NCBI GenBank assembly: GCA_964490375.1
Contig: CAZBAZ010000001.1
Span: forward strand, 18,690-75,438
Reading direction: 5' to 3'
Source of the DNA: an uncultured Clostridium sp.
GTDB lineage: Bacteria; Bacillota_I; Bacilli_A; RF39; UBA660
Length of the DNA: 56,749 nucleotides
In this document: positions 29,337 through 40,214 of the stretch, in pieces
Numbering within the stretch: position 1 is the first letter of the stretch
Layout: every line of letters begins with the position of its first letter
Translations under genes and position numbers: made by a program
Notes under the pieces: generated by a model
What the model saw: only the letters and a program-made list of their open reading frames with translations
What the model was told of the DNA's origin: nothing
The model's database searches: none

Positions 29337-31064
29337 CTAAAGAGAATATTTTAATTCTTGTTGTGGTAATTCAAAAGTGTAAACTACATAATTTTCATAT
29401 TTATTAATCATATGTGATTCAATTTGACTTAAAGGTTTTGTTCTTATTATCAATTTAATATCAGTATCAATATTTTCATAACACTTTTTATTATTAAGTA
29501 TAATTTTAGCTATTTCATTTAATTCTTTATTTGTTGCATTATTTTGTTTTCTTTCTTGATAATAAGTTCTTAGCATTTTATCATTAGATAAATATTTACT
29601 TCTTATAGATTTTAATTTGTTTATAAATTGTTCATCTATTTTGATGGTTTTTGAATCTAATGCTTTAACCATTTCATATGTATTTGAATTTAATGCTATA
29701 TTATTTGGATCTACTCCATAAATACTAGATATCTTTTTTATATATTCTCTTAATGTTGTAATATAATTTATATCATTTTCTTTCATTATATCTATCATCG
29801 ATTTTAGTATTTTATCTGTAGTACTAATTGAAAAATTATATTCTCTTTCATCTGGAAGTTTTATTTTAAATATTGGATTATAATTAGTTGAATATAATAT
29901 TCCTTTTTCAGGATATACTTCTTCTAACTTTTTAAATCCAGTAAATATATTTGGTATTCCCAATTCGCTTTTAGCTTTTAGAGTTTCTGAAATTCTTTTT
30001 TTAAATTCTGAATCGTCTGTCTTTAATTCTTTCATAATAATAGATACAGCATTGTCTATTATTAAGCTTGCAAAGAAAACTTTTTTTCCATCATGATTTA
30101 CTGTTTTATTTAAATGTTCTTTAATATAATTTATCATTAGAATTTCGCAAGAATCTTCTAATATGTCAGCTCTTAAAGTGTTAAATGAATGTCTAAAGTC
30201 AAGATGTTCATTGTCAGGTTCTTCACCAATGCCAATCCAATTATTGATTTTATTTGTTAATATTGGAGGATTTCCACAGTTTTTTACCATGCTTGGATAT
30301 TTAGTTCCAATGCTATTTAAAATATCTATATTTGCTTTTAGTTCTTTAAGAGAACAATATATTAAAAATTTGTCATTTCTTTTAGGATCTGTTTGGAATT
30401 TAAAATAGTATGGTATTCTATTAGTTTCACAAAGACGTGTATACTCTGCGATTATTTTAAATAAATCTTCATTAGCACAATCAACATATATTCTAAATTC
30501 AGTTTTATCTCTATGTATTTTTCTTGCATGAATATATCTTGAATCTACATGTGTAAAATCGCCTAAATAATCACCTTGTGGAAAAAATCCTGAAGTTTCT
30601 TGTTTTGATCTCCAAAAATAATTATATTTTTCAAAATCTACATCAAGATTTCTAACCATAATAGTATATATTTTATCTATATCATGCATAGATTCTACTG
30701 ATTCTATATTTTTTAACGTTTTTTGTAATATTTCATATCCAGGCAAGCCTTGTCTTTTAAGATCTTCTAATTTATTTTGTGAAAGTGACTTAATATTTTT
30801 TAGCCAAATATTAGTCATTTTAATATAATACTTTTCATAATCTTCTTTATTAACTTTTGTTGTATCATTAGATGCAGAAGCACTAGTTAAAAAATCATAT
30901 AGTGGATTTATTCTTGAAAGTTTTTTACCAGTTCCACTATATCCCAAATTAGCATGGGATCTGTCACTTTTCTTATAATAATTTAGAACATCATCTAAAA
31001 AATAGTCATCATTTATAACACTATTTTTAGCGCCATTATCGCATAACGAAAGTAATGAATTCAT
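29337..31064 (-). CDS. Hypothetical protein with a HopA1-like domain
   Basis: FRIYVD...YFKF...RNDKFLIY...PPILT..I..WIGIGEEP...SFNTLRADIL pattern. Confidence 0.55.
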   Translation of the reverse strand: MNSLLSLCDNGAKNSVINDDYFLDDVLNYYKKSDRSHANLGYSGTGKKLSRINPLYDFLTSASASNDTTKVNKEDYEKYYIKMTNIWLKNIKSLSQNKLEDLKRQGLPGYEILQKTLKNIESVESMHDIDKIYTIMVRNLDVDFEKYNYFWRSKQETSGFFPQGDYLGDFTHVDSRYIHARKIHRDKTEFRIYVDCANEDLFKIIAEYTRLCETNRIPYYFKFQTDPKRNDKFLIYCSLKELKANIDILNSIGTKYPSMVKNCGNPPILTNKINNWIGIGEEPDNEHLDFRHSFNTLRADILEDSCEILMINYIKEHLNKTVNHDGKKVFFASLIIDNAVSIIMKELKTDDSEFKKRISETLKAKSELGIPNIFTGFKKLEEVYPEKGILYSTNYNPIFKIKLPDEREYNFSISTTDKILKSMIDIMKENDINYITTLREYIKKISSIYGVDPNNIALNSNTYEMVKALDSKTIKIDEQFINKLKSIRSKYLSNDKMLRTYYQERKQNNATNKELNEIAKIILNNKKCYENIDTDIKLIIRTKPLSQIESHMINKYENYVVYTFELPQQELKYSL

Positions 31065-31154: not shown

Positions 31155-33269
31155 TTATTGTCTTCTTAATTTTAATGATTTTTTCTTCACTGTTTCAAAA
31201 TCAACAGTTCTATTTATTTTAGATGCATCTTTAACAACTAAATCAATTTTATCACCAATATGATAAATATTGCCATTTCTACCTATTACAGCGCATTTTA
31301 CTTGATCATAGTGATATTGATCATCTTTCATATCTTTAAAATATACTCTTCCTTTTATACAATCAGTGGTTCTAACAAACATTGAATTAGGAGTTATTTC
31401 AACTATATATGCCTCAACTTCATTTCCAATTTTATCTTCCATATATGCTGCCATTGCCATTTCTAATGCTTCATTTTCCATTTTTTCACTTATAATTTCA
31501 AGTCTATTTACTCTAGTACATAACTCTTCAATAAAATCTTGTAGTTTTTTTATATTTTCTTCACTATAATCAAATGTTTGATAATCGTCAACTAAGGCAT
31601 TTGTTGCTAAATCAGGTACTCTTCTAATAGGTGATGTAAAATGGCCATAGCAATCAAATTGAGTTGCAAAGTGTCCTATATTTTCTGAGGAATATTTTGC
31701 TCTTTTCATTCCTCTAAGTAAATATTCTCTTGCTATCATATCTGCTTCACTATTACCTAAAGAATTAATAATTGTATTTAGGGCCTTACAATCAATTTGC
31801 TTATATTTTGGAATTTTAAATCCTGATTTACGTAGTACTTCCAAAACTTCTTGTACTCTTAAAAGATCTGGTTCTTCATGAACACGAAATGGTAAAGTTA
31901 ACCAAGCATAGTGACTATAAAAAATTGAATTAGCAATTCCCATGAATACTTCAATCATACTTCCACTTAGTCCATAATCGTTTTTTTCAAATCCATAAAT
32001 TTTATTGTACTCATCACTTTTTTCTTTAACTTCTAATAATTTAAAGTTTAAAAAATTTCTTCTTTGACGTGCAGCTTCTAGTATATAATAAAGTTCTAAC
32101 ATATTCATTAAATCAGTTCTATATTCTTCATAACCACTTACATTTTTGCCCTCAAACACTTCATTGCACTTACTATATGACATTGCTTTTTTTGATCTAA
32201 TAACGCTATCATAAATTTGATAATTAGCAATCTCGCCTGAAGGTGTAATTTCAACTTCAACAGTCCTAGTTAAACGGTCTACATTTGGGTTTAAAGAACA
32301 AATTCCATTTGAAACAATTGGATGTAGCATATTTATAACAGAATATAATAGATAATGACTAAAGCATCTATTAATAGCTTCATCAAAAGATTTTGTTCCT
32401 GGCCTTATATAATGGCTTACATGAGCAATATTTACTTTCAATAAATAGTTGCCATTTTCTAATTTTTTTACACCAACAGCGTCATCACGATCTTTAGTTT
32501 GATCACAATCTATCGTAAAAATATTTTCACTTCTTAAATCAACACGATTTTTTAAGTCTTCACTTGTTACCTCTTTTGGTAAATCTCTAACTTCTGCTAT
32601 AATTTCTTTACTAAATTCATATGGTACGTCATATTTAGCAGCAATTGATTTGATATCAATATCTAATTCATTTTTATTTCCAATAATTTTTTCAATGTTT
32701 CCATAATAAACACCATTTGAATTATTAATTGAAACTCTTACCTTTACTAAATCTCCATCTTGTAAATTATCTAATTGATTTGAATTAATTTCTAAATTAA
32801 TAAATTCTTTTGAATTGTATGGTACAAGACTTGCTTCTTTTCCATTTCCTATAACCTGAAAAATAACAATTCCAGAACTTCTTTTTGCTACTTTAAAAAC
32901 TGAACCTGAAAAATAATCTTTTCTTTTTTTTACTATTTCATTTACTACAACATTATCGCCATCAAGAGCTCCATTTAAGCAATTATTTTCTATTAAAATT
33001 ACATAACCTTCTTTAGTATGAACAAATCCTGTTCCTGATTTATTAATTTTTATTTTTCCAAATGCTAAACCATTATTAATAGGAAATTGTTGATATTTTC
33101 CATTTTTAGAAAGTATAAAACCTTCTTCTTCTAAATTGTTAATTGCATTTTTCAATAAGTTAAGATTATCTTCTCCATAAACTTTTAGTTTCTTTTTAAT
33201 TTCATCGAAATCATGAAACTTATAATCACTTTTAAAATAATTCTTTAATGATAAAATCATTTCTTCCAT
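31155..33269 (-). CDS. rnr: Ribonuclease R
   Basis: Cold-shock OB domains; TIDCDQTKDRDDA; HFTSPIRR.PD; C-terminal S1 domain. Confidence 0.93.
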   Translation of the reverse strand: MEEMILSLKNYFKSDYKFHDFDEIKKKLKVYGEDNLNLLKNAINNLEEEGFILSKNGKYQQFPINNGLAFGKIKINKSGTGFVHTKEGYVILIENNCLNGALDGDNVVVNEIVKKRKDYFSGSVFKVAKRSSGIVIFQVIGNGKEASLVPYNSKEFINLEINSNQLDNLQDGDLVKVRVSINNSNGVYYGNIEKIIGNKNELDIDIKSIAAKYDVPYEFSKEIIAEVRDLPKEVTSEDLKNRVDLRSENIFTIDCDQTKDRDDAVGVKKLENGNYLLKVNIAHVSHYIRPGTKSFDEAINRCFSHYLLYSVINMLHPIVSNGICSLNPNVDRLTRTVEVEITPSGEIANYQIYDSVIRSKKAMSYSKCNEVFEGKNVSGYEEYRTDLMNMLELYYILEAARQRRNFLNFKLLEVKEKSDEYNKIYGFEKNDYGLSGSMIEVFMGIANSIFYSHYAWLTLPFRVHEEPDLLRVQEVLEVLRKSGFKIPKYKQIDCKALNTIINSLGNSEADMIAREYLLRGMKRAKYSSENIGHFATQFDCYGHFTSPIRRVPDLATNALVDDYQTFDYSEENIKKLQDFIEELCTRVNRLEIISEKMENEALEMAMAAYMEDKIGNEVEAYIVEITPNSMFVRTTDCIKGRVYFKDMKDDQYHYDQVKCAVIGRNGNIYHIGDKIDLVVKDASKINRTVDFETVKKKSLKLRRQ

Positions 33270-33379
33270 ATCTTTATCCCCCTAATGGTTTTATAGTATC
33301 ATAACTAAATTAAAATTAAAAGAAAAACACGCTTTTTCATTGAAAATTGTGTTTTTCTAATTTTTGTTATATATACTTT

Positions 33380-33568
33380 TTACTTAGAATTATGGCATTT
33401 GCATTTATGTTTCTTTTCTTCGCAAGTACATTTCTTGCCTTCTTGGCATCCACATGTGCAATTTTTATCGCAAGTGCATTTTTCTTCTTCACATCCACAT
33501 GTACATTTTTTTCCTTCTTGACATCCGCATGTGCAAGTTTTTTTACATTTTTCATTCTCTTTCTTCAT
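33380..33568 (-). CDS. Small Cys-rich metallothionein-like protein (62 aa, 16 Cys)
   Basis: MKKENEKCKKTCTCGCQEGKKCTCGCEEEKCTCDKNCTCGCQEGKKCTCEEKKHKCKCHNSK; AGGAG RBS upstream of the ATG; Cys pattern repeated with synonymous changes. Confidence 0.75.
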   Translation of the reverse strand: MKKENEKCKKTCTCGCQEGKKCTCGCEEEKCTCDKNCTCGCQEGKKCTCEEKKHKCKCHNSK

Positions 33569-33766
33569 GTTTTTTATCTCCTTTTTTCTTATAAAATATT
33601 TATTTCATTTTGTAGACATTATCAACATCCATTTATCCAATATTATTATATCAATTTTTTAACTTATGTACAATTCGTTTTCAAACACTTGTAATTTGAT
33701 AGTCAAGTTTTTCACTTTATAAACCATTTTCATTAAAATTAATTACATTTTTAAATTAAATTACAT

Positions 33767-34000
33767 TCAAAAAGGAAGTGGTTCCCAATTAAAATAGGTA
33801 TTTCTTTTTCCATCATTGTATTGATAATGTATAACTAATATCCCTTTATCTATATATTTAATTGAATTATATTCTTGATAGTGCTCTCTTTTGTGTATAA
33901 TTGGACTATTATTAAACATTTTTGCTTGCAATGAATCAACAAAAATCAATAATAAAAACAAAGTCAATATTACTAATATAATTTTTACTATATTTTTCAT
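33767..34000 (-). CDS. Small membrane-anchored hypothetical protein
   Basis: GGGGAG RBS; N-terminal TM helix; 77 aa. Confidence 0.7.
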   Translation of the reverse strand: MKNIVKIILVILTLFLLLIFVDSLQAKMFNNSPIIHKREHYQEYNSIKYIDKGILVIHYQYNDGKRNTYFNWEPLPF

Positions 34001-34003
34001 TCA

Positions 34004-34270
34004 GTATCTCCCCCGTTTGAATTGTTCCAGTCACATTATTTATACTTGTAAAATACATAGTTCGACCTATACCTAAAGTTCCATGACTTCCTCCGCTTAA
34101 CACTCCTAAAGGTATAGAGCCACCGTTTGTGTCCGTTCTTGGAATAAATACTGGCGCTCCCACTATCACCATGATTCGATTCAACATTTGTCTTTACAAG
34201 GTCCTTTATAGTAGTCTCAGGAAGACCATCTGATGCTCCATAAGTAACTGTTTGATTTAGGCCTTTAACT
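34004..34270 (-). pseudogene. Frameshifted C-terminal fragment of a chymotrypsin-like (streptogrisin/alpha-lytic type) serine protease
   Basis: One frame reads VKGLNQTVTYG...LVKTNVESNHGDSG; after one extra G (GGTGATAGTGGGAGCG) the next frame continues APVFIPR...LGVLSGG. The N-terminal His/Asp half is absent. Confidence 0.65.
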
Positions 34271-34327
34271 TCTTACCACAACAGTTTTTATATTTTTTTC
34301 TGAGCCACAAGAACTTTGTACTCCCAT
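34264..34327 (-). pseudogene. Frameshifted SEC-C motif remnant
   Basis: TGT GGC TCA G-A AAA AAA TAT AAA AAC TGT TGT GGT AAG reads CGS(G)KKYKNCCGK if one base is restored. Confidence 0.6.
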
Positions 34328-34468: not shown

Positions 34469-36964
34469 CTACTTACCACAACAATTTTTGTATTTCTTAC
34501 CACTTCCACATGGACAGGGATCATTTCTTCCTATTTTAGCTTGTGCTTTTTTAGGAATGTTTTTTACTGATTCTTTTCCATCATTTGTTCTAATATTTTT
34601 AGTTACTTCTTTTCTTTCAATATTTTGTCTTACCTCTGCATTAAGTAAGTATGTTGATATTTCTGCACTGATTGTTGCCATCATTTTATCAAATAATTCA
34701 AATCCTTCTAATGCATATACTTGAAGTGGATTACTTTGTGCATAACCTCTAAGTCCAACTCCTTCTTTTAATGCTTCCATTGCATCTAACTGATCCATCC
34801 AATTTTTATCAATAATTCTAAGTGATATTGATTTTTCAAAATCATCTTGTATTTCTTTTGGAACATCTTCAAGTTTCTTATTATAATCATCAACAACTAT
34901 ATTATAAATAATATCCACAATTTCTTCATTAGATTTATCTTTAAAATCTTCTTTAGTTAATTTTTTGCTCTTTAATAAATGAGCATTAAAGTGTTCTATA
35001 ATATTATCAATATCGTTATCAGTTAAATATCCTTCTGGTGGAATATGAACATTTATTTGATCTTGAACATATGTTTTGAAAGTATCTAGAACCCTATCAC
35101 GAATACTATCTTTATCTAAAATTTCATTTCTTCTTTCATAAATTATTTCTCTTTGCTTACTAATAACATTATCAAAATCTAATAATCCCTTACGTCTATC
35201 AAAGTTGAATCCTTCTACTTTTTTTTGCGCAGCTTCTAAATTCTTAGAAATCATTTTATTTGATATTGCTTGGTCCTCTTCTATTCCTAATGATTGCATT
35301 ATATTTTTCATTTTTTCAGAACCAAATTTTAACATTAAATCATCTTCCATAGAAACGAAAAATCTTGTAGCACCTGGATCTCCTTGTCTTCCTGAACGTC
35401 CACGAAGTTGGTTATCTATACGTCTTGAATCATGTCTTTCTGTTCCAATTACATATAAGCCACCTAATTCTCTTACACCTTCACCTAATTTAATATCAGT
35501 TCCACGTCCTGCCATATTTGTTGCTATTGTAACAGCATTCTTTTTACCTGCATTTTCAATAATATGTGCTTCTCTTTCATGATTCTTTGCATTTAATAAT
35601 TCATGTTTAATTCCAGCTTTTGTTAATAATTGACTTATAACTTCACTAGTTTCTACTGTTGCTGCTCCAATTAAGATTGGTCTTCCAGTTGAATGAATTT
35701 CTTTTACTGTTCTTACTAATGCTTTATATTTTCCATTTAAAGATGAATAAATTAAATCTACTTGATCATCTCTTATAACTGGTTTATTAGTTGGAATGCA
35801 AACAACATATGTATTATAAATGTTTCTAAATTCTTCTTCTTCTGTTTTAGCAGTACCTGTCATTCCAGCTAGTTTATTATACATTCTAAATAAATTTTGG
35901 AAAGTAATTGTTGCCAAAGTTTTTGTTTCTTCATTAATGTCAACGCCTTCTTTGGCTTCAATTGCTTGATGTAATCCTTCACTAAATTGACGTCCATGCA
36001 TTAAACGACCAGTAAATGTATCAACAATAATTACTTTTCCATTTTCAACTACATAATCAACATCTTTTTTAAATCCATAATTAGCTACCATAGCTTTATC
36101 TAAATTATGAACCATAACACTATTATCTATATTATATAGATTATCTAAATGTAATAGTTTTTCTACATGTTTTACACCATCTTCTGTAAGTGTAACTCTT
36201 TTTGTTTTTTCATCCAATACATAATCATCTACTGAAAGACTTTTTGCAACTCTATCTGCTTCTTTATAAACATTTGCACTTTTAGCAGATCCACCAGAAA
36301 TAATTAAAGGTGTTCTTGCTTCATCAATTAGAATTGAATCTACTTCATCAATAATTGCAAAGTTTAAGCCTCTTTGAGTTCTCTTTTCACGTCTAACAAC
36401 CATGTTATCTCTTAAGTAGTCAAAGCCCAACTCATTATTTGTTGTGTATGTTATATCAGCAGCATAGGCTTCTCTTTTTTCTTCTGGAGTTTTATCTCTT
36501 AAGTTAATTCCTACTGATACACCTAGTAAATCATAAATAGGTTTCATCCATTCTGCATTACGTGTTGATAAGTATTCATTTGTAGTAATTACATGAACAC
36601 CTAATCCACTTAGGGCATTTAAATAAGCTGGTAAAACAGTTGTCAATGTTTTTCCTTCACCAGTTTTCATTTCTGCTATATTTCCTCTATGAATAGCTAT
36701 ACCACCTATTATTTGAACTCTATATGGTTTTTCACCAATAGCTCTAAAACAAGCTTCTCTAGCTAATGCTATTGCTTCTACTAGTATATCTTCAAGTGTT
36801 TCTCCATTACTTAATCTTTTTTTAAATTCTTCAGTTTTAGCCTTTATTTCTACATCTTTTAATTTAGACATTTCTTCATCTAAAGCTTCAACTTGATCTG
36901 TTAATTTATTTATCTTTTTTAATTCTTTTGTTTCATAATCAAAAATATTTTTTAAGATTCCCAT
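34469..36964 (-). CDS. secA: Protein translocase subunit SecA
   Basis: EMKTGEGKT, DEVDSILIDEARTPL, TNMAGRGTDI, C-terminal GRNDPCPCGSGKKYKNCC. Start at 36964 follows GGAGG. Confidence 0.98.
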   Translation of the reverse strand: MGILKNIFDYETKELKKINKLTDQVEALDEEMSKLKDVEIKAKTEEFKKRLSNGETLEDILVEAIALAREACFRAIGEKPYRVQIIGGIAIHRGNIAEMKTGEGKTLTTVLPAYLNALSGLGVHVITTNEYLSTRNAEWMKPIYDLLGVSVGINLRDKTPEEKREAYAADITYTTNNELGFDYLRDNMVVRREKRTQRGLNFAIIDEVDSILIDEARTPLIISGGSAKSANVYKEADRVAKSLSVDDYVLDEKTKRVTLTEDGVKHVEKLLHLDNLYNIDNSVMVHNLDKAMVANYGFKKDVDYVVENGKVIIVDTFTGRLMHGRQFSEGLHQAIEAKEGVDINEETKTLATITFQNLFRMYNKLAGMTGTAKTEEEEFRNIYNTYVVCIPTNKPVIRDDQVDLIYSSLNGKYKALVRTVKEIHSTGRPILIGAATVETSEVISQLLTKAGIKHELLNAKNHEREAHIIENAGKKNAVTIATNMAGRGTDIKLGEGVRELGGLYVIGTERHDSRRIDNQLRGRSGRQGDPGATRFFVSMEDDLMLKFGSEKMKNIMQSLGIEEDQAISNKMISKNLEAAQKKVEGFNFDRRKGLLDFDNVISKQREIIYERRNEILDKDSIRDRVLDTFKTYVQDQINVHIPPEGYLTDNDIDNIIEHFNAHLLKSKKLTKEDFKDKSNEEIVDIIYNIVVDDYNKKLEDVPKEIQDDFEKSISLRIIDKNWMDQLDAMEALKEGVGLRGYAQSNPLQVYALEGFELFDKMMATISAEISTYLLNAEVRQNIERKEVTKNIRTNDGKESVKNIPKKAQAKIGRNDPCPCGSGKKYKNCCGK

Positions 36965-37057
36965 GTAATCATCCTCCATAGCAATTATTATAGCAAAACT
37001 AAAAAGAAAAGTGAATGTTTTTCACTTTTCTATCACTTTATCATTATGATTTCTTTA

Positions 37058-37591
37058 TTAATTTGCTTCAATGATGCCATAACCATCATCAGCTCTTTTA
37101 TAAACTACGTTAATTTTATCTGTTTCTACATTTTTAAATATAAAGAATGAATGTCCTAAAAGTTCCATTTGAGTTATTGCTTCTTCTTCATCAATTGGTT
37201 TTAGGAAAATTTCTTTTCTTCTTACTACAGTAGAATTATCATATTCTTCTTCAAAATATTCTTCTATTTCAGGCATAACTGGTTCTTTAGAAGAATTTCT
37301 TTTACTAGTTAGTTTACCTCTATATTTTTTAAATTGTCTTTCTAATTTATCAATAACTAAATCAATAGCGGAATATAAATCAGGATTTACAACCTCAGCT
37401 CTAATATTATATTTACCACTCCATATAGTTACTTCTACTTTTTGATCCTTTCCTTTAGCAGAAACTATTGCTTTAGCTTCTACCTCATCATTATCATCTA
37501 AGTATTTCTCTAATTTAGATAATTTGCTCTTAATGTAATCATTAATTGCTTCGGTAACATCAATTTTATTACCACGGATATTATATCTCAT
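37058..37591 (-). CDS. hpf: Long-form ribosome hibernation promoting factor
   Basis: IRGNKIDVTEAI, DLYSAID, C-terminal KPIDEEEAITQMELLGHSFF; upstream of secA. Confidence 0.95.
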   Translation of the reverse strand: MRYNIRGNKIDVTEAINDYIKSKLSKLEKYLDDNDEVEAKAIVSAKGKDQKVEVTIWSGKYNIRAEVVNPDLYSAIDLVIDKLERQFKKYRGKLTSKRNSSKEPVMPEIEEYFEEEYDNSTVVRRKEIFLKPIDEEEAITQMELLGHSFFIFKNVETDKINVVYKRADDGYGIIEAN

Positions 37592-37705: not shown

Positions 37706-37927
37706 TTATACTGCGCTTAATTTTACTTCTCTAACGTTTATGGCTTGACTTCCTTTAACTGTATTAATTAGTGTAAATTCTACAAGTTCGCCTTCTTTAA
37801 GAGTTTTATAACCTTCTTGGTCAATGGCTGAATAGTGAACAAATATGTCTTCATTCATATTTCCTTCAAATTCGATAAATCCATAGCCTTTTTCATTGTT
37901 AAACCACTTAACTCTTCCTCTACTCAT
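37706..37927 (-). CDS. Cold-shock domain protein
   Basis: [15 protein letters not shown] and DIFVHYSAI (RNP1/RNP2). Start MSRG at 37927 follows GGAAGG. Confidence 0.93.
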
Positions 37928-38149
37928 TATATACCTTCCCTTCTTTATATTTTGCACACTATTCTTGCGTACTATTCTAGTCTACACTATAAAAGTATTT
38001 TATTTGAATAATTGTCATTAATACTGCTATTTTTGTCAAAAACTAACTTTTTTAATTATTTTTTTAATAATTTTTTCATTTTAAGCAAAATAAAATAGCT
38101 TTAATGACAAATTTTCATACTTTTTAAATTTATAGTGTATGATAAAACC

Positions 38150-38758
38150 ATGATTATGAAGGAAGTAGTAGTAAATAGTATAATTAGTAATATCAAAAAA
38201 TATTATAATTATAGTGATGTAAAATTAGCTGAAATTAAATATGGTATTGAATCGTTATATTTATCAATATTTAAAACTCTTGTTATTTTTATAATATCAT
38301 TTATATTTCATTTTACAAAAGAACTGATACTTTTATTTATATTCTATGGACTCCTTAGATTAACTGCTTTTGGGGTTCATGCTAAAAAATCATGGCAATG
38401 TTGGGTTTCTTCTATATTAACTTTTACTATATTGCCATTACTTATTAAATATGTTGTTGTTAATAACTTGTTAATTGATATTCTTTCTGTGATTTTTTTA
38501 GTTATACTTGCTATTTATGCCCCAGCAGATACTGAGAAAAGACCAATTTATAGTAAGAAAAAAAGAAGTGTTTATAAGTTGTTAACAATAATAATTTCTA
38601 CTATTTATGTTTTATTAATTATATTCTCTAATAATATTTATATGAAAAACATCTTGTTTTATTCTTTATTAAATCAAGTAATTCTTATATTACCTATAAC
38701 ATATAAATTATTTGGAGTTCAATATAGTAACTATAAAAGGAAAGGAGGAAAAATATGA
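38150..38758 (+). CDS. agrB: Accessory gene regulator B (AIP-processing protease)
   Basis: IKYGIE; LRLTAFGVHA...CW (His/Cys dyad); YAPADTEKRP. Start uncertain (38135 GTG, 38150 or 38156 ATG). Confidence 0.92.
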   Translation: MIMKEVVVNSIISNIKKYYNYSDVKLAEIKYGIESLYLSIFKTLVIFIISFIFHFTKELILLFIFYGLLRLTAFGVHAKKSWQCWVSSILTFTILPLLIKYVVVNNLLIDILSVIFLVILAIYAPADTEKRPIYSKKKRSVYKLLTIIISTIYVLLIIFSNNIYMKNILFYSLLNQVILILPITYKLFGVQYSNYKRKGGKI

Positions 38759-38897: not shown

Positions 38898-38926
38898 AAA
38901 ACTAATTGAACAAATCAATTAGTTTT
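38898..38926. terminator. Bidirectional terminator between agrBD and agrAC
   Basis: aaaactaattga-acaaa-tcaattagtttt; the agrC stop lies in one arm. Confidence 0.75.
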
Positions 38927-40214
38927 GTTTTACTATAATTTTTGAATTAAATATTTGATTCTCTATTTTCTGTTCTAATATTAAATTATTACTTGTTTTT
39001 AAGAGATTTTTTATAATATATAAACCTAAACCTCTTCCTTTTCCTTTTGTAGAATAATTTTTAGTACCAATTTTTCTAATATCAACTTGTTTACTAAATG
39101 AATTATCAATCATTATGATTATATTCTCATTTTCTTTATAAATGTCTATATTTAACATTTTTTCTTTACTATTATCTGCAGCCTCAATAGCATTATCTAA
39201 TGTTATTCCAACTGTTTTACAAAGTAATGCATATTCTTTATGATTTAGTTTTTCTAAATTTAATGATATTTGTTTTGAAATGTTTATATTTACTTTTATT
39301 TTTTTCTTTTGAACTTCTTCTAATTTATAGTAAACCATACCTTTTAATCCAGTTGGCAATTTACTAATATTTTTAATTCCCATACCCTTTTTATCATAAA
39401 TTCTTATTAAATCGTCAAGAGTATCATTAAATTCTTTTGAGTTTTTATTTTTTATACTTTTTAATATTAACAAATTATTTAACATTTCATGTCTATTTAT
39501 TCTATCTTCATCTATTTTATTTTCATAAGTTGAAATAAAGTTTAACAATGTTTCTGTTTTTTTAACTTCTTTTAAAGATTTTATGTTGTTGTAAATTCCA
39601 TATCCAATTATAAGTGTAAAACATATAATAATTAAAATATTGGTAAAATAAATTTTTTTGTTTCCATTTATAACCATTTTGTAATCTAATAATGCAAATA
39701 CAATTAATATTATAATTGATACAATTAATGTTGTATTATTTTTCCCTATAAATGAGTTGATTTTAGCTGATAGTCTTTGTATCTTTTTTCTTCCAGTAAT
39801 GTAAAACAAAATTAAAACATTTATTAACGAATATATAATTTTTAATAACATATTTTCATCAAAAAAGCTTAAGTTTGTTATATGCAAAATCACAAGTATA
39901 AATGAAGTAGCCAATTCAAATAAAAGCATTATTATAAAACACATAATTGTGTTTATAGTAACTTTTGGAAGTTTATCATTAAAGACAATTAATGCACTAA
40001 TCATAAGAACTAACATATTTAAAACAATTCTTGATACACTTCCGTTGTTATAAAAAACTATTGATATTATTATTCCTGAAAGTATTGATACTATGATTAT
40101 CTTTTTGCTTATAACTATCTTATTGTTTCCACTTAATCTATTATAAGAAAGTAATTGTATATAGGAACTAAATATAGCTAATAGACCAATTATGGCATAA
40201 TTAAAAGCATTCAT
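38919..40214 (-). CDS. agrC: AgrC-type sensor histidine kinase
   Basis: Multi-TM N-terminus; RHEMLNNL H-box; LDNAIEAA; YSTKGKGRGLGL. Confidence 0.9.
   Translation of the reverse strand: MNAFNYAIIGLLAIFSSYIQLLSYNRLSGNNKIVISKKIIIVSILSGIIISIVFYNNGSVSRIVLNMLVLMISALIVFNDKLPKVTINTIMCFIIMLLFELATSFILVILHITNLSFFDENMLLKIIYSLINVLILFYITGRKKIQRLSAKINSFIGKNNTTLIVSIIILIVFALLDYKMVINGNKKIYFTNILIIICFTLIIGYGIYNNIKSLKEVKKTETLLNFISTYENKIDEDRINRHEMLNNLLILKSIKNKNSKEFNDTLDDLIRIYDKKGMGIKNISKLPTGLKGMVYYKLEEVQKKKIKVNINISKQISLNLEKLNHKEYALLCKTVGITLDNAIEAADNSKEKMLNIDIYKENENIIIMIDNSFSKQVDIRKIGTKNYSTKGKGRGLGLYIIKNLLKTSNNLILEQKIENQIFNSKIIVKQN

Follow-up and report, generated by a model that had tools for sequence, protein, structure and literature searches.

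A 62-residue cysteine-rich protein of an uncultured Clostridium sp. as a member of an undescribed modular family of metallothionein-like proteins, with Cu(I) as the probable metal

The known metallothioneins of bacteria are few. In reviews from 2020 and 2024, SmtA/BmtA are the sole bacterial metallothioneins named; MymT, CutC, CopZ and Csp appear there as proteins that bind Cu in the cytoplasm, with MymT counted among the very few bacterial proteins that sequester Cu. Here we describe a Cys-rich gene at positions 33380..33568 (-) of a 56,749-nucleotide stretch of DNA from an uncultured Clostridium sp. (the whole stretch analysed is called the window; its G+C content is 26%). It is a genuine gene, conserved and subject to purifying selection. 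We consider it rather probable that this open reading frame (ORF) is a monocistronic gene, belonging to an undescribed, modular, metallothionein-like family for which Cu(I) is the main metal. The family would add to the few known ones a new sequence family, defined by a conserved 7-Cys module, within a known functional kind of protein.

The coding sequence runs from ATG to TAA, stop included, and its translation is MKKENEKCKKTCTCGCQEGKKCTCGCEEEKCTCDKNCTCGCQEGKKCTCEEKKHKCKCHNSK. The protein contains 16 Cys, 16 Lys, 9 Glu, 6 Thr, 5 Gly, 3 Asn, 2 Gln, 2 His and one residue each of Met, Asp and Ser. It has no aromatic residue, and Met1 is the sole aliphatic one (Phe, Trp, Tyr, Leu, Ile and Val are all absent). 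Cysteine makes up 26% of its residues, against 1.26% over the 47 ORFs of the window, which places the ORF far beyond what chance would give. All 16 Cys lie within CxC or CxCxC runs, and the protein shows the features of the metallothionein class: low mass, very high Cys content, absence of aromatics and CxC-type motifs.

The family is built on a 19-residue module with 7 Cys, which reads C-[NT]-C-[DG]-[EP]-[DN]-C-T-C-G-C-Q-E-G-K-[EPK]-C-T-C over 158 distinct modules, or C-x-C-x3-C-T-C-G-C-Q-E-G-K-x-C-T-C in short. One complete module, CTCDKNCTCGCQEGKKCTC, is present in the window protein (aa 31-49; 33422..33478, -) and fits the family logo. It is preceded by a partial one (aa 8-24), from which the leading CxC is missing, with only Cys8 in its place. 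Both contain the core repeat CTCGCQEGKKCTC, at aa 12-24 (33497..33535, -) in the partial module and at aa 37-49 (33422..33460, -) in the complete one. The rest of the protein consists of a bridging G-C-EEEK segment and a H-K-C-K-C-H tail. This C-terminal tail (H-K-C-K-C-H-N, aa 54-60; 33389..33409, -) carries a His-flanked CxC that may contribute ligands, and similar His-capped CxC ends (HECKCGKH) are found in fusion proteins of Akkermansia. The 39-nucleotide (nt) copies of CTCGCQEGKKCTC differ at 6 positions, all of them synonymous (6 of about 7 synonymous sites and 0 of 32 nonsynonymous sites). The protein is strongly basic (net charge +6), and each of its modules has QEGKK; among the stand-alone relatives acidic charges of -3 to -14 predominate, and only those of loci L016, L071, L052 and L068 are likewise basic.

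A preliminary description of this DNA, made from the sequence alone, had proposed a protein of 62 residues with 16 Cys and 2 His and no aromatic or aliphatic core, which the translation bears out with the exception of Met1. It had also taken the repeat, present twice with synonymous differences, as a sign of selection on the frame; the count of six synonymous and no nonsynonymous changes agrees with this, as do comparisons of the window protein with 11 homologs, which gave pN/pS ratios of 0.18-0.38 at pS values of 0.54-0.86. The good ribosome-binding site that it mentioned is a Shine-Dalgarno AAGGAG (33578..33583, -), located 9 nt before the ATG.

Homologs were found at every depth of search. 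A single-sequence search of 5.8e9 proteins returned nine protein clusters, with eight homologs of 49-80 aa that carry the same motifs; a full-length profile of 38 sequences retrieved 185 protein clusters from 5.8e9 sequences; an exhaustive HMMER scan of 1.84e9 representatives gave 31; and a scan of one genome per species gave 73 loci, with the frame kept across clusters and loci alike. The commonest form is a stand-alone protein consisting solely of 2-4 modules, and a five-module array occurs in a planctomycete protein (L021). Across loci of 25-70% GC the amino acids of the core CTCGCQEGKxCTC are identical, whereas at its third codon positions the copies of Bacilli and actinomycetes share as little as 8-15% identity, which indicates long-standing purifying selection and not recent transfer or contamination. 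A GGAG-type Shine-Dalgarno site stands at the same spacing in 34 of the 37 stand-alone homologs, and the three others include both Bacteroidales-type loci (L057 and L070).

None of the 73 loci belongs to a cultured organism; almost all are labelled as metagenome-assembled genomes (MAGs), and for most of them the stated sample is gut or rumen, with goat, sheep, deer, buffalo, cattle, chicken and human as hosts. The labels cover Bacilli/Erysipelotrichaceae/"Tenericutes", Clostridia, Alphaproteobacteria, Akkermansia and Bacteroidales, as well as Gastranaerophilales, Propionibacteriaceae, Atopobium and Planctomycetaceae. Two loci of 25% GC, L028 and L029, labelled Muribaculaceae and Rickettsiales, may be mis-binned. 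The window shares no synteny with the loci of the closest relatives, L014 and L016, beyond the gene itself, and tblastn against plasmid and phage records, run with the low-complexity filter on, gave no match.

The expression signals agree with a gene standing by itself. A sigma-70-type promoter-like site (TGTACA, a 16-nt spacer and a TG-extended TATAAT; 33645..33672, -) is a consensus match with 10 of 12 hexamer positions and TG before the -10, the best in a region whose count of promoter-like sites is not above that of shuffled sequences. The leader of about 75 nt has no significant structure (z = -0.7). No Rfam family reaches its threshold anywhere in the 56.7-kb window, not even a tRNA, which argues against a riboswitch or leader RNA. 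Between the Cys-rich gene and the RNase R gene (31155-33269, -) lies a terminator-like hairpin, AGAAAAACAC ... GUGUUUUUCU, of 10 bp followed by a U-rich tract (33307..33358, -), with a minimum free energy of -18.1 kcal/mol and z = -3.0 against shuffles; a simple terminator scan omitted it, as its loop exceeds 8 nt. With its own promoter-like site and this hairpin separating it from the RNase R gene, the Cys-rich gene looks monocistronic.

The metal connection comes from the relatives. A gene of the CsoR/RcnR family (PF02583) lies 10-12 nt upstream of the genes for proteins P0002, P0003 and P0004, whose neighbourhoods are otherwise unrelated, and a hidden Markov model built from these regulators places such a gene next to 13 of the 73 species loci. 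When the 71 genes immediately flanking 37 stand-alone members were tallied by Pfam family, PF02583 was counted 8 times and every other family at most twice; it is the sole enriched neighbour family. These CsoR-like proteins retain the Cys...His-x3-Cys ligand set (KYCNDIL...ENHIYRC), and their best solved relatives are Cu(I)-sensing CsoRs, with 4m1p first (E = 1.4e-14) and then 4adz and 2hh7.

All nine csoR-metallothionein (csoR-MT) operons of Bacilli (L001, L003, L010, L019, L028, L032, L033, L036 and L043) carry a ATATACCCCC[TG]xATTTAC box, which overlaps the -35 about 60-70 nt before the csoR start, and the ribosome-binding site TGGTGGTGA/G downstream of it is conserved as well. This box is likely the operator of the CsoR-like repressor, as judged from its position and conservation. 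ATACCCC, which we take to be the half-site of known CsoR operators, provides a lead for the ATATACCCCC box, not a test of it. The CsoR-like proteins of L010, L019, L028, L032, L033, L036 and L043 begin with M-x-x-C-C-K-K-T; in L001 and L003 the called start omits this motif, yet the upstream DNA encodes it.

The module is also found joined to other domains. In four actinomycete loci (Propioniciclava, Propionibacteriaceae and actinomycete MAGs) it lies N-terminal to an HMA/CopZ-like domain, confirmed by Pfam on L018; each of the four has a CsoR gene upstream, and in three a P1B-ATPase gene comes next (confirmed by Pfam on L086), so that the HMA-fused module sits in csoR-copZ-copA operons. It follows an ArsR-type HTH (HTH_5) in L061 and P0128, and closes the His-rich tail of a SlyD-like FKBP in L080. 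Genes for cation-diffusion-facilitator (CDF) transporters (Cation_efflux and ZT_dimer) flank L014 and lie near L016, the loci of the closest relatives of the window protein, and a CDF gene follows csoR-MT in L036.

Other partners belong to general physiology. The module precedes GrpE in the hrcA-grpE-dnaK operons of six species and ends a YlbF/YmcA-like protein (PF06133) in ten species-level Akkermansia loci (L023, L025, L026, L048, L055, L063, L066, L067, L081 and L082). It also occurs with SIMPL, DUF1292 (9 clusters), DUF4298, ferredoxin, RNase E/G and peptidase C69, with a DoxX-like membrane protein and with signal-peptide-bearing proteins. The GrpE proteins concerned (L027, L047, L049, L059, L065 and L079, from Clostridia and Bacilli MAGs) have N-terminal extensions of 60-120 residues composed of modules and of His/Cys-rich variants. 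The Akkermansia YlbF/YmcA tail comprises one or two modules together with CSCGGGCHGDC and HECKCGKH motifs, and its gene adjoins a sulfatase gene.

CsoR adjacency, the HMA/CopZ fusions in csoR-copZ-copA operons, the ArsR fusions and the CDF neighbours together link the family to metals. The CsoR, CopZ and CopA contexts point further to Cu(I), which the genomic surroundings of the relatives probably favour over Zn or Cd; the CDF, ArsR and SlyD contexts would keep Zn, Cd and Ni possible. Of the Zn/Cd/Cu-binding family suggested in the preliminary description, the metal link is thus supported by genomic context, with a shift of weight from Zn and Cd towards Cu(I).

In the mechanism that we propose, each 19-residue module with its 7 Cys has no hydrophobic core and would fold only around a metal-thiolate cluster. 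AlphaFold2, run with the family alignment, gave the window protein a pLDDT of 58 and a pTM of 0.36, with one 6-residue helix and short strands; such low confidence is expected of a metal-free thionein. The complete and the partial module, the bridging CxC/GC segment and the His-flanked CxC tail would provide a ligand set of 16 Cys and 2 His, by which the protein would capture several ions of soft metals in the cytoplasm. Its capacity, scaled from the Cu:Cys and Zn:Cys ratios generally known for metallothioneins, would be roughly 8-10 Cu(I) or 5-6 Zn/Cd. The context of the relatives suggests a Cu(I) buffer or sink that would act beside Cu efflux.

Several observations weigh against this reading. 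No metal gene, metalloregulator or ArsR/SmtB gene adjoins the window copy (the preliminary description had already remarked on the absence of a neighbouring SmtB/ArsR regulator), tblastn found no CsoR-family gene in the window, and searches of the window for the ATATACCCCCTTATTTAC box, with up to 3 mismatches, and for TACCCCC gave 0 matches. The window copy appears CsoR-independent and may be constitutive. About 80% of the stand-alone relatives are orphans as well, with no CsoR box within 250 bp. The extra N-terminal Cys-Cys pair of the CsoR-like neighbours could change their metal or ligand specificity, and the CDF and ArsR contexts are no less compatible with Zn/Cd than with Cu. Metal detoxification is not an obvious purpose of the fusions to GrpE, YlbF, DUF1292, RNase E/G and peptidase C69. 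Finally, the non-Cys residues T, G, Q, E, G and K of the module are almost invariant, a constancy uncommon among metallothioneins that may reflect a more specific structure or partner.

Among the alternatives, the one that survives best is a thionein of the same architecture for a divalent metal, Zn(II), Cd(II) or Ni(II), in which Zn/Cd-thiolate clusters would form on the model of the CXC-type Zn3Cys9 or Zn2Cys6 clusters, with CDF efflux as its partner. The CDF genes around L014, L016 and L036, the fusions to ArsR/SmtB-type HTH in L061 and P0128, the SlyD-like tail of L080, which is of a kind generally known to bind Ni or Zn, and a possible retuning of the CsoR-like regulators by their N-terminal Cys-Cys pair all speak for it. 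On the other hand, the sole enriched neighbour is a CsoR with Cu-type C-H-C ligands, the HMA fusions sit in csoR-copZ-copA operons, and the CxC-dominated spacing, with the weak dipteran likeness discussed below, is typical of Cu-thioneins. We regard divalent metals as a minor possibility.

A slightly more doubtful proposal keeps Cu(I) and extends its role. The module would be a new, autonomously folding polynuclear Cu(I)-cluster domain (e.g. Cu4S6-7). Anaerobic gut bacteria would employ it both on its own, as a metallothionein, and attached to core machinery such as GrpE, YlbF/YmcA, RNase E/G, CopZ and ArsR-type regulators, where it would sense metal or redox state. If true, copper status would be tied directly to protein folding and RNA turnover.

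It is unlikely that the module is, first of all, a portable structural or regulatory metal-cluster domain, that is, a sensor or docking tail coupling metal or redox state to its partners, with the stand-alone proteins acting in trans and not as bulk sinks. The near invariance of the non-Cys residues across phyla and the repeated fusions (GrpE, YlbF/YmcA, DUF1292, ferredoxin, RNase E/G, peptidase C69, SIMPL and the DoxX-like protein) would fit such a domain. Stand-alone proteins of 2-4 modules are nevertheless the commonest form, the tandem expansion to five modules in L021 looks like a scaling of capacity, and the CsoR, CopZ and ArsR contexts are homeostasis loci.

Still less probable is a metal-independent thiol buffer against oxidants, electrophiles or sulfide species in anaerobes devoid of glutathione. 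Genes for flavodoxin-like proteins, nitroreductases and DUF362 proteins recur within about 2.5 kb in several loci, some members of the CsoR family are generally known to sense persulfide or aldehydes, and FrmR is among the PDB matches of the regulators. The regulator retains, however, the His of the Cu(I) site, which the persulfide-sensing CstR generally lacks; the HMA, CopA, ArsR and CDF links are specific for metals, and no redox family is enriched among the immediate neighbours.

The precursor of a ribosomally synthesised, modified peptide (of the ranthipeptide or SCIFF-like kind, for instance) would also be small, Cys-rich and at home in Bacillota, but this is very improbable: no radical-SAM, YcaO, lanthionine-synthetase or export gene stands beside the window gene or recurs among the families listed for the 71 immediate neighbours, there is no NCBIfam match and no visible division into leader and core, and the module is fused to housekeeping cytoplasmic proteins. 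Equally remote is a cysteine-sensing leader ORF attenuating the RNase R gene, or a chance ORF; poly-Cys leader ORFs are known in mycobacteria (bioRxiv 10.1101/834739), and a hairpin does lie between the ORF and rnr, but 62 codons are long for a leader, RNase R is not a gene of a cysteine pathway, and homologs occur in unrelated contexts. The leader-peptide and chance-ORF readings are effectively refuted by two facts: non-Cys residues are under purifying selection, and the module serves as a domain of proteins.

The public annotation of this gene needs correction. The public copy of the window protein, P0001, has 82 aa because its start was placed 20 codons farther upstream, with an in-frame TGA translated as Trp (MLIMSTKW...; 33569..33628, -). 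This extension is an annotation artefact, given that the window follows the standard code, with TGA as the stop of 3 of the 47 ORFs, 91 uses of TGG and intact long ORFs. The gene caller evidently applied genetic code 4 to a low-GC contig. P0015 (107 aa) is probably mis-started as well. The suspicion, raised in the preliminary description, that annotation pipelines could easily miss this gene did not hold; gene callers do find it, but with wrong starts in the databases (82 and 107 aa).

Directly upstream of the Cys-rich gene lies a 77-aa ORF (33767-34000, -) with a signal-peptide-like start, MKNIVKIILVILTLFLLLIFVDSLQA..., and without a Pfam family. Its own start overlaps the end of a serine-protease-like remnant, a frameshifted GDSG fragment at about 34010-34300 (-) that is identified by its GDSG motif only. 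The remnant reads ...NHGDSGS in one frame and then APVFIPRTDTNGGSIPLGVLSGGSHG in the next, which looks like a 1-nt frameshift; Pfam gave no match for the read-through peptide, and the N-terminal catalytic half would not fit before the SecA terminator. Farther upstream are the genes for SecA (34469-36979, -), a ribosome hibernation factor (37058-37591, -) and a cold-shock protein (37706-37957, -).

Elsewhere in the window, where 43 of the 47 long ORFs are on the minus strand, a 575-aa protein (29337..31064, -) matches the Pfam HopA1 type III effector family (E = 1.7e-5; 25.2 bits against a cut-off of 22.7). The match is weak yet above threshold, and is unexpected in a low-GC genome of Gram-positive type. 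An AgrB homolog (38135..38758, +) adjoins a GHKL histidine kinase (38919..40214, -), forming an Agr-type locus for peptide quorum sensing.

The family is present in taxonomically diverse uncultured bacteria of human, ruminant and poultry guts, which are anoxic and often loaded with copper and zinc from feed. Its short module, together with the paired CsoR-type regulator and the putative operator box, which is conserved, offers a handle on metal buffering there, and could help to explain how soft metals are buffered in organisms without the classical systems. The fusions to GrpE, YlbF, SlyD-like proteins and CopZ suggest links between metal status and core physiology. The module might also serve as a compact tag for metal binding or biosensing.

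The comparison with known families agrees with the view of the preliminary description that the family is undescribed. Searches of Pfam, NCBIfam and PDB sequences with the window protein gave no match, nor did a PDB search with the family profile; the source databases name the proteins solely "hypothetical protein". In the literature searched, strings of the CTCGCQ type are not mentioned, and papers on new bacterial metallothioneins, CsoR-linked Cys-rich proteins and CopZ extensions contain no description of the family. The difference from SmtA/BmtA expected in the preliminary description was likewise found: at E <= 10, Metallothio_Pro (PF02069) matched neither the window protein nor any of the 38 members of the profile, and the SmtA structure was included in the PDB sequence searches without a match. 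SmtA/BmtA, which represent the prokaryotic metallothionein family 14, resemble the present proteins as bacterial Cys-rich metal buffers often paired with a dedicated metalloregulator. SmtA differs in its zinc-finger-like fold, its His ligands, its aromatic residues, its fewer Cys and its binding of Zn4.

The CxCxC patterns had been said to look eukaryotic, and the sole resemblance in Pfam points the same way. Metallothio_5 (PF02067, dipteran) gave sub-threshold matches to 23 of the 38 members, with a best score of 20.4 bits and others of 11-16 against a gathering threshold of 25; the window protein had no match, and no other domain family recurs. The family aligns at profile positions 16-40, the C-terminal half of the dipteran metallothioneins (Drosophila Mtn), with which the bacterial module shares a spacing of the C-x-C-G-x-D-C-x-C-G type. 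The bacterial module continues as an invariant C-Q-E-G-K-x-C-T-C that the fly proteins lack, and the likeness is probably convergent. The metallothioneins of Drosophila are Cu-preferring thioneins, and in sequence pattern the Cu-thioneins of flies and fungi are the nearest to the family.

Two other systems are similar in one respect each. Csp1 and Csp3 are high-capacity cytoplasmic stores of Cu(I) thiolates, controlled by Cu sensors in some species, and share the role of thiolate storage. They are pre-folded four-helix bundles of about 120 aa that form tetramers, whereas for the window protein neither a stable fold nor helical arrays of Cys are predicted; neither Pfam nor the AlphaFold model gave it a four-helix bundle of the Csp type. 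The tails of SlyD, HypB and Helicobacter GroES (HspA) recall the module as it is appended to the SlyD-like FKBP, GrpE, CopZ and others. Those tails are generally known as irregular His-rich stretches, while the tail in this family is a conserved 19-residue Cys module that is also free-standing.

The nearest analogue in function is MymT, the mycobacterial Cu(I) metallothionein, whose regulator RicR belongs to the CsoR family. In sequence the two seem far apart: hhalign, with a provisional MymT sequence as query, gave a probability of 0.5% and aligned only 'CTC'. The Cys of MymT number about half of those found here, and they are not set in a repeated module. As to regulation, the window copy has neither a CsoR gene nor a CsoR box, while 13 of the 73 relatives have an adjoining CsoR. 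MymT and the protein described here are nonetheless alike as small, CxC-rich bacterial proteins of the cytoplasm, and MymT is under the control of a CsoR-family regulator, as the relatives of the window gene appear to be.

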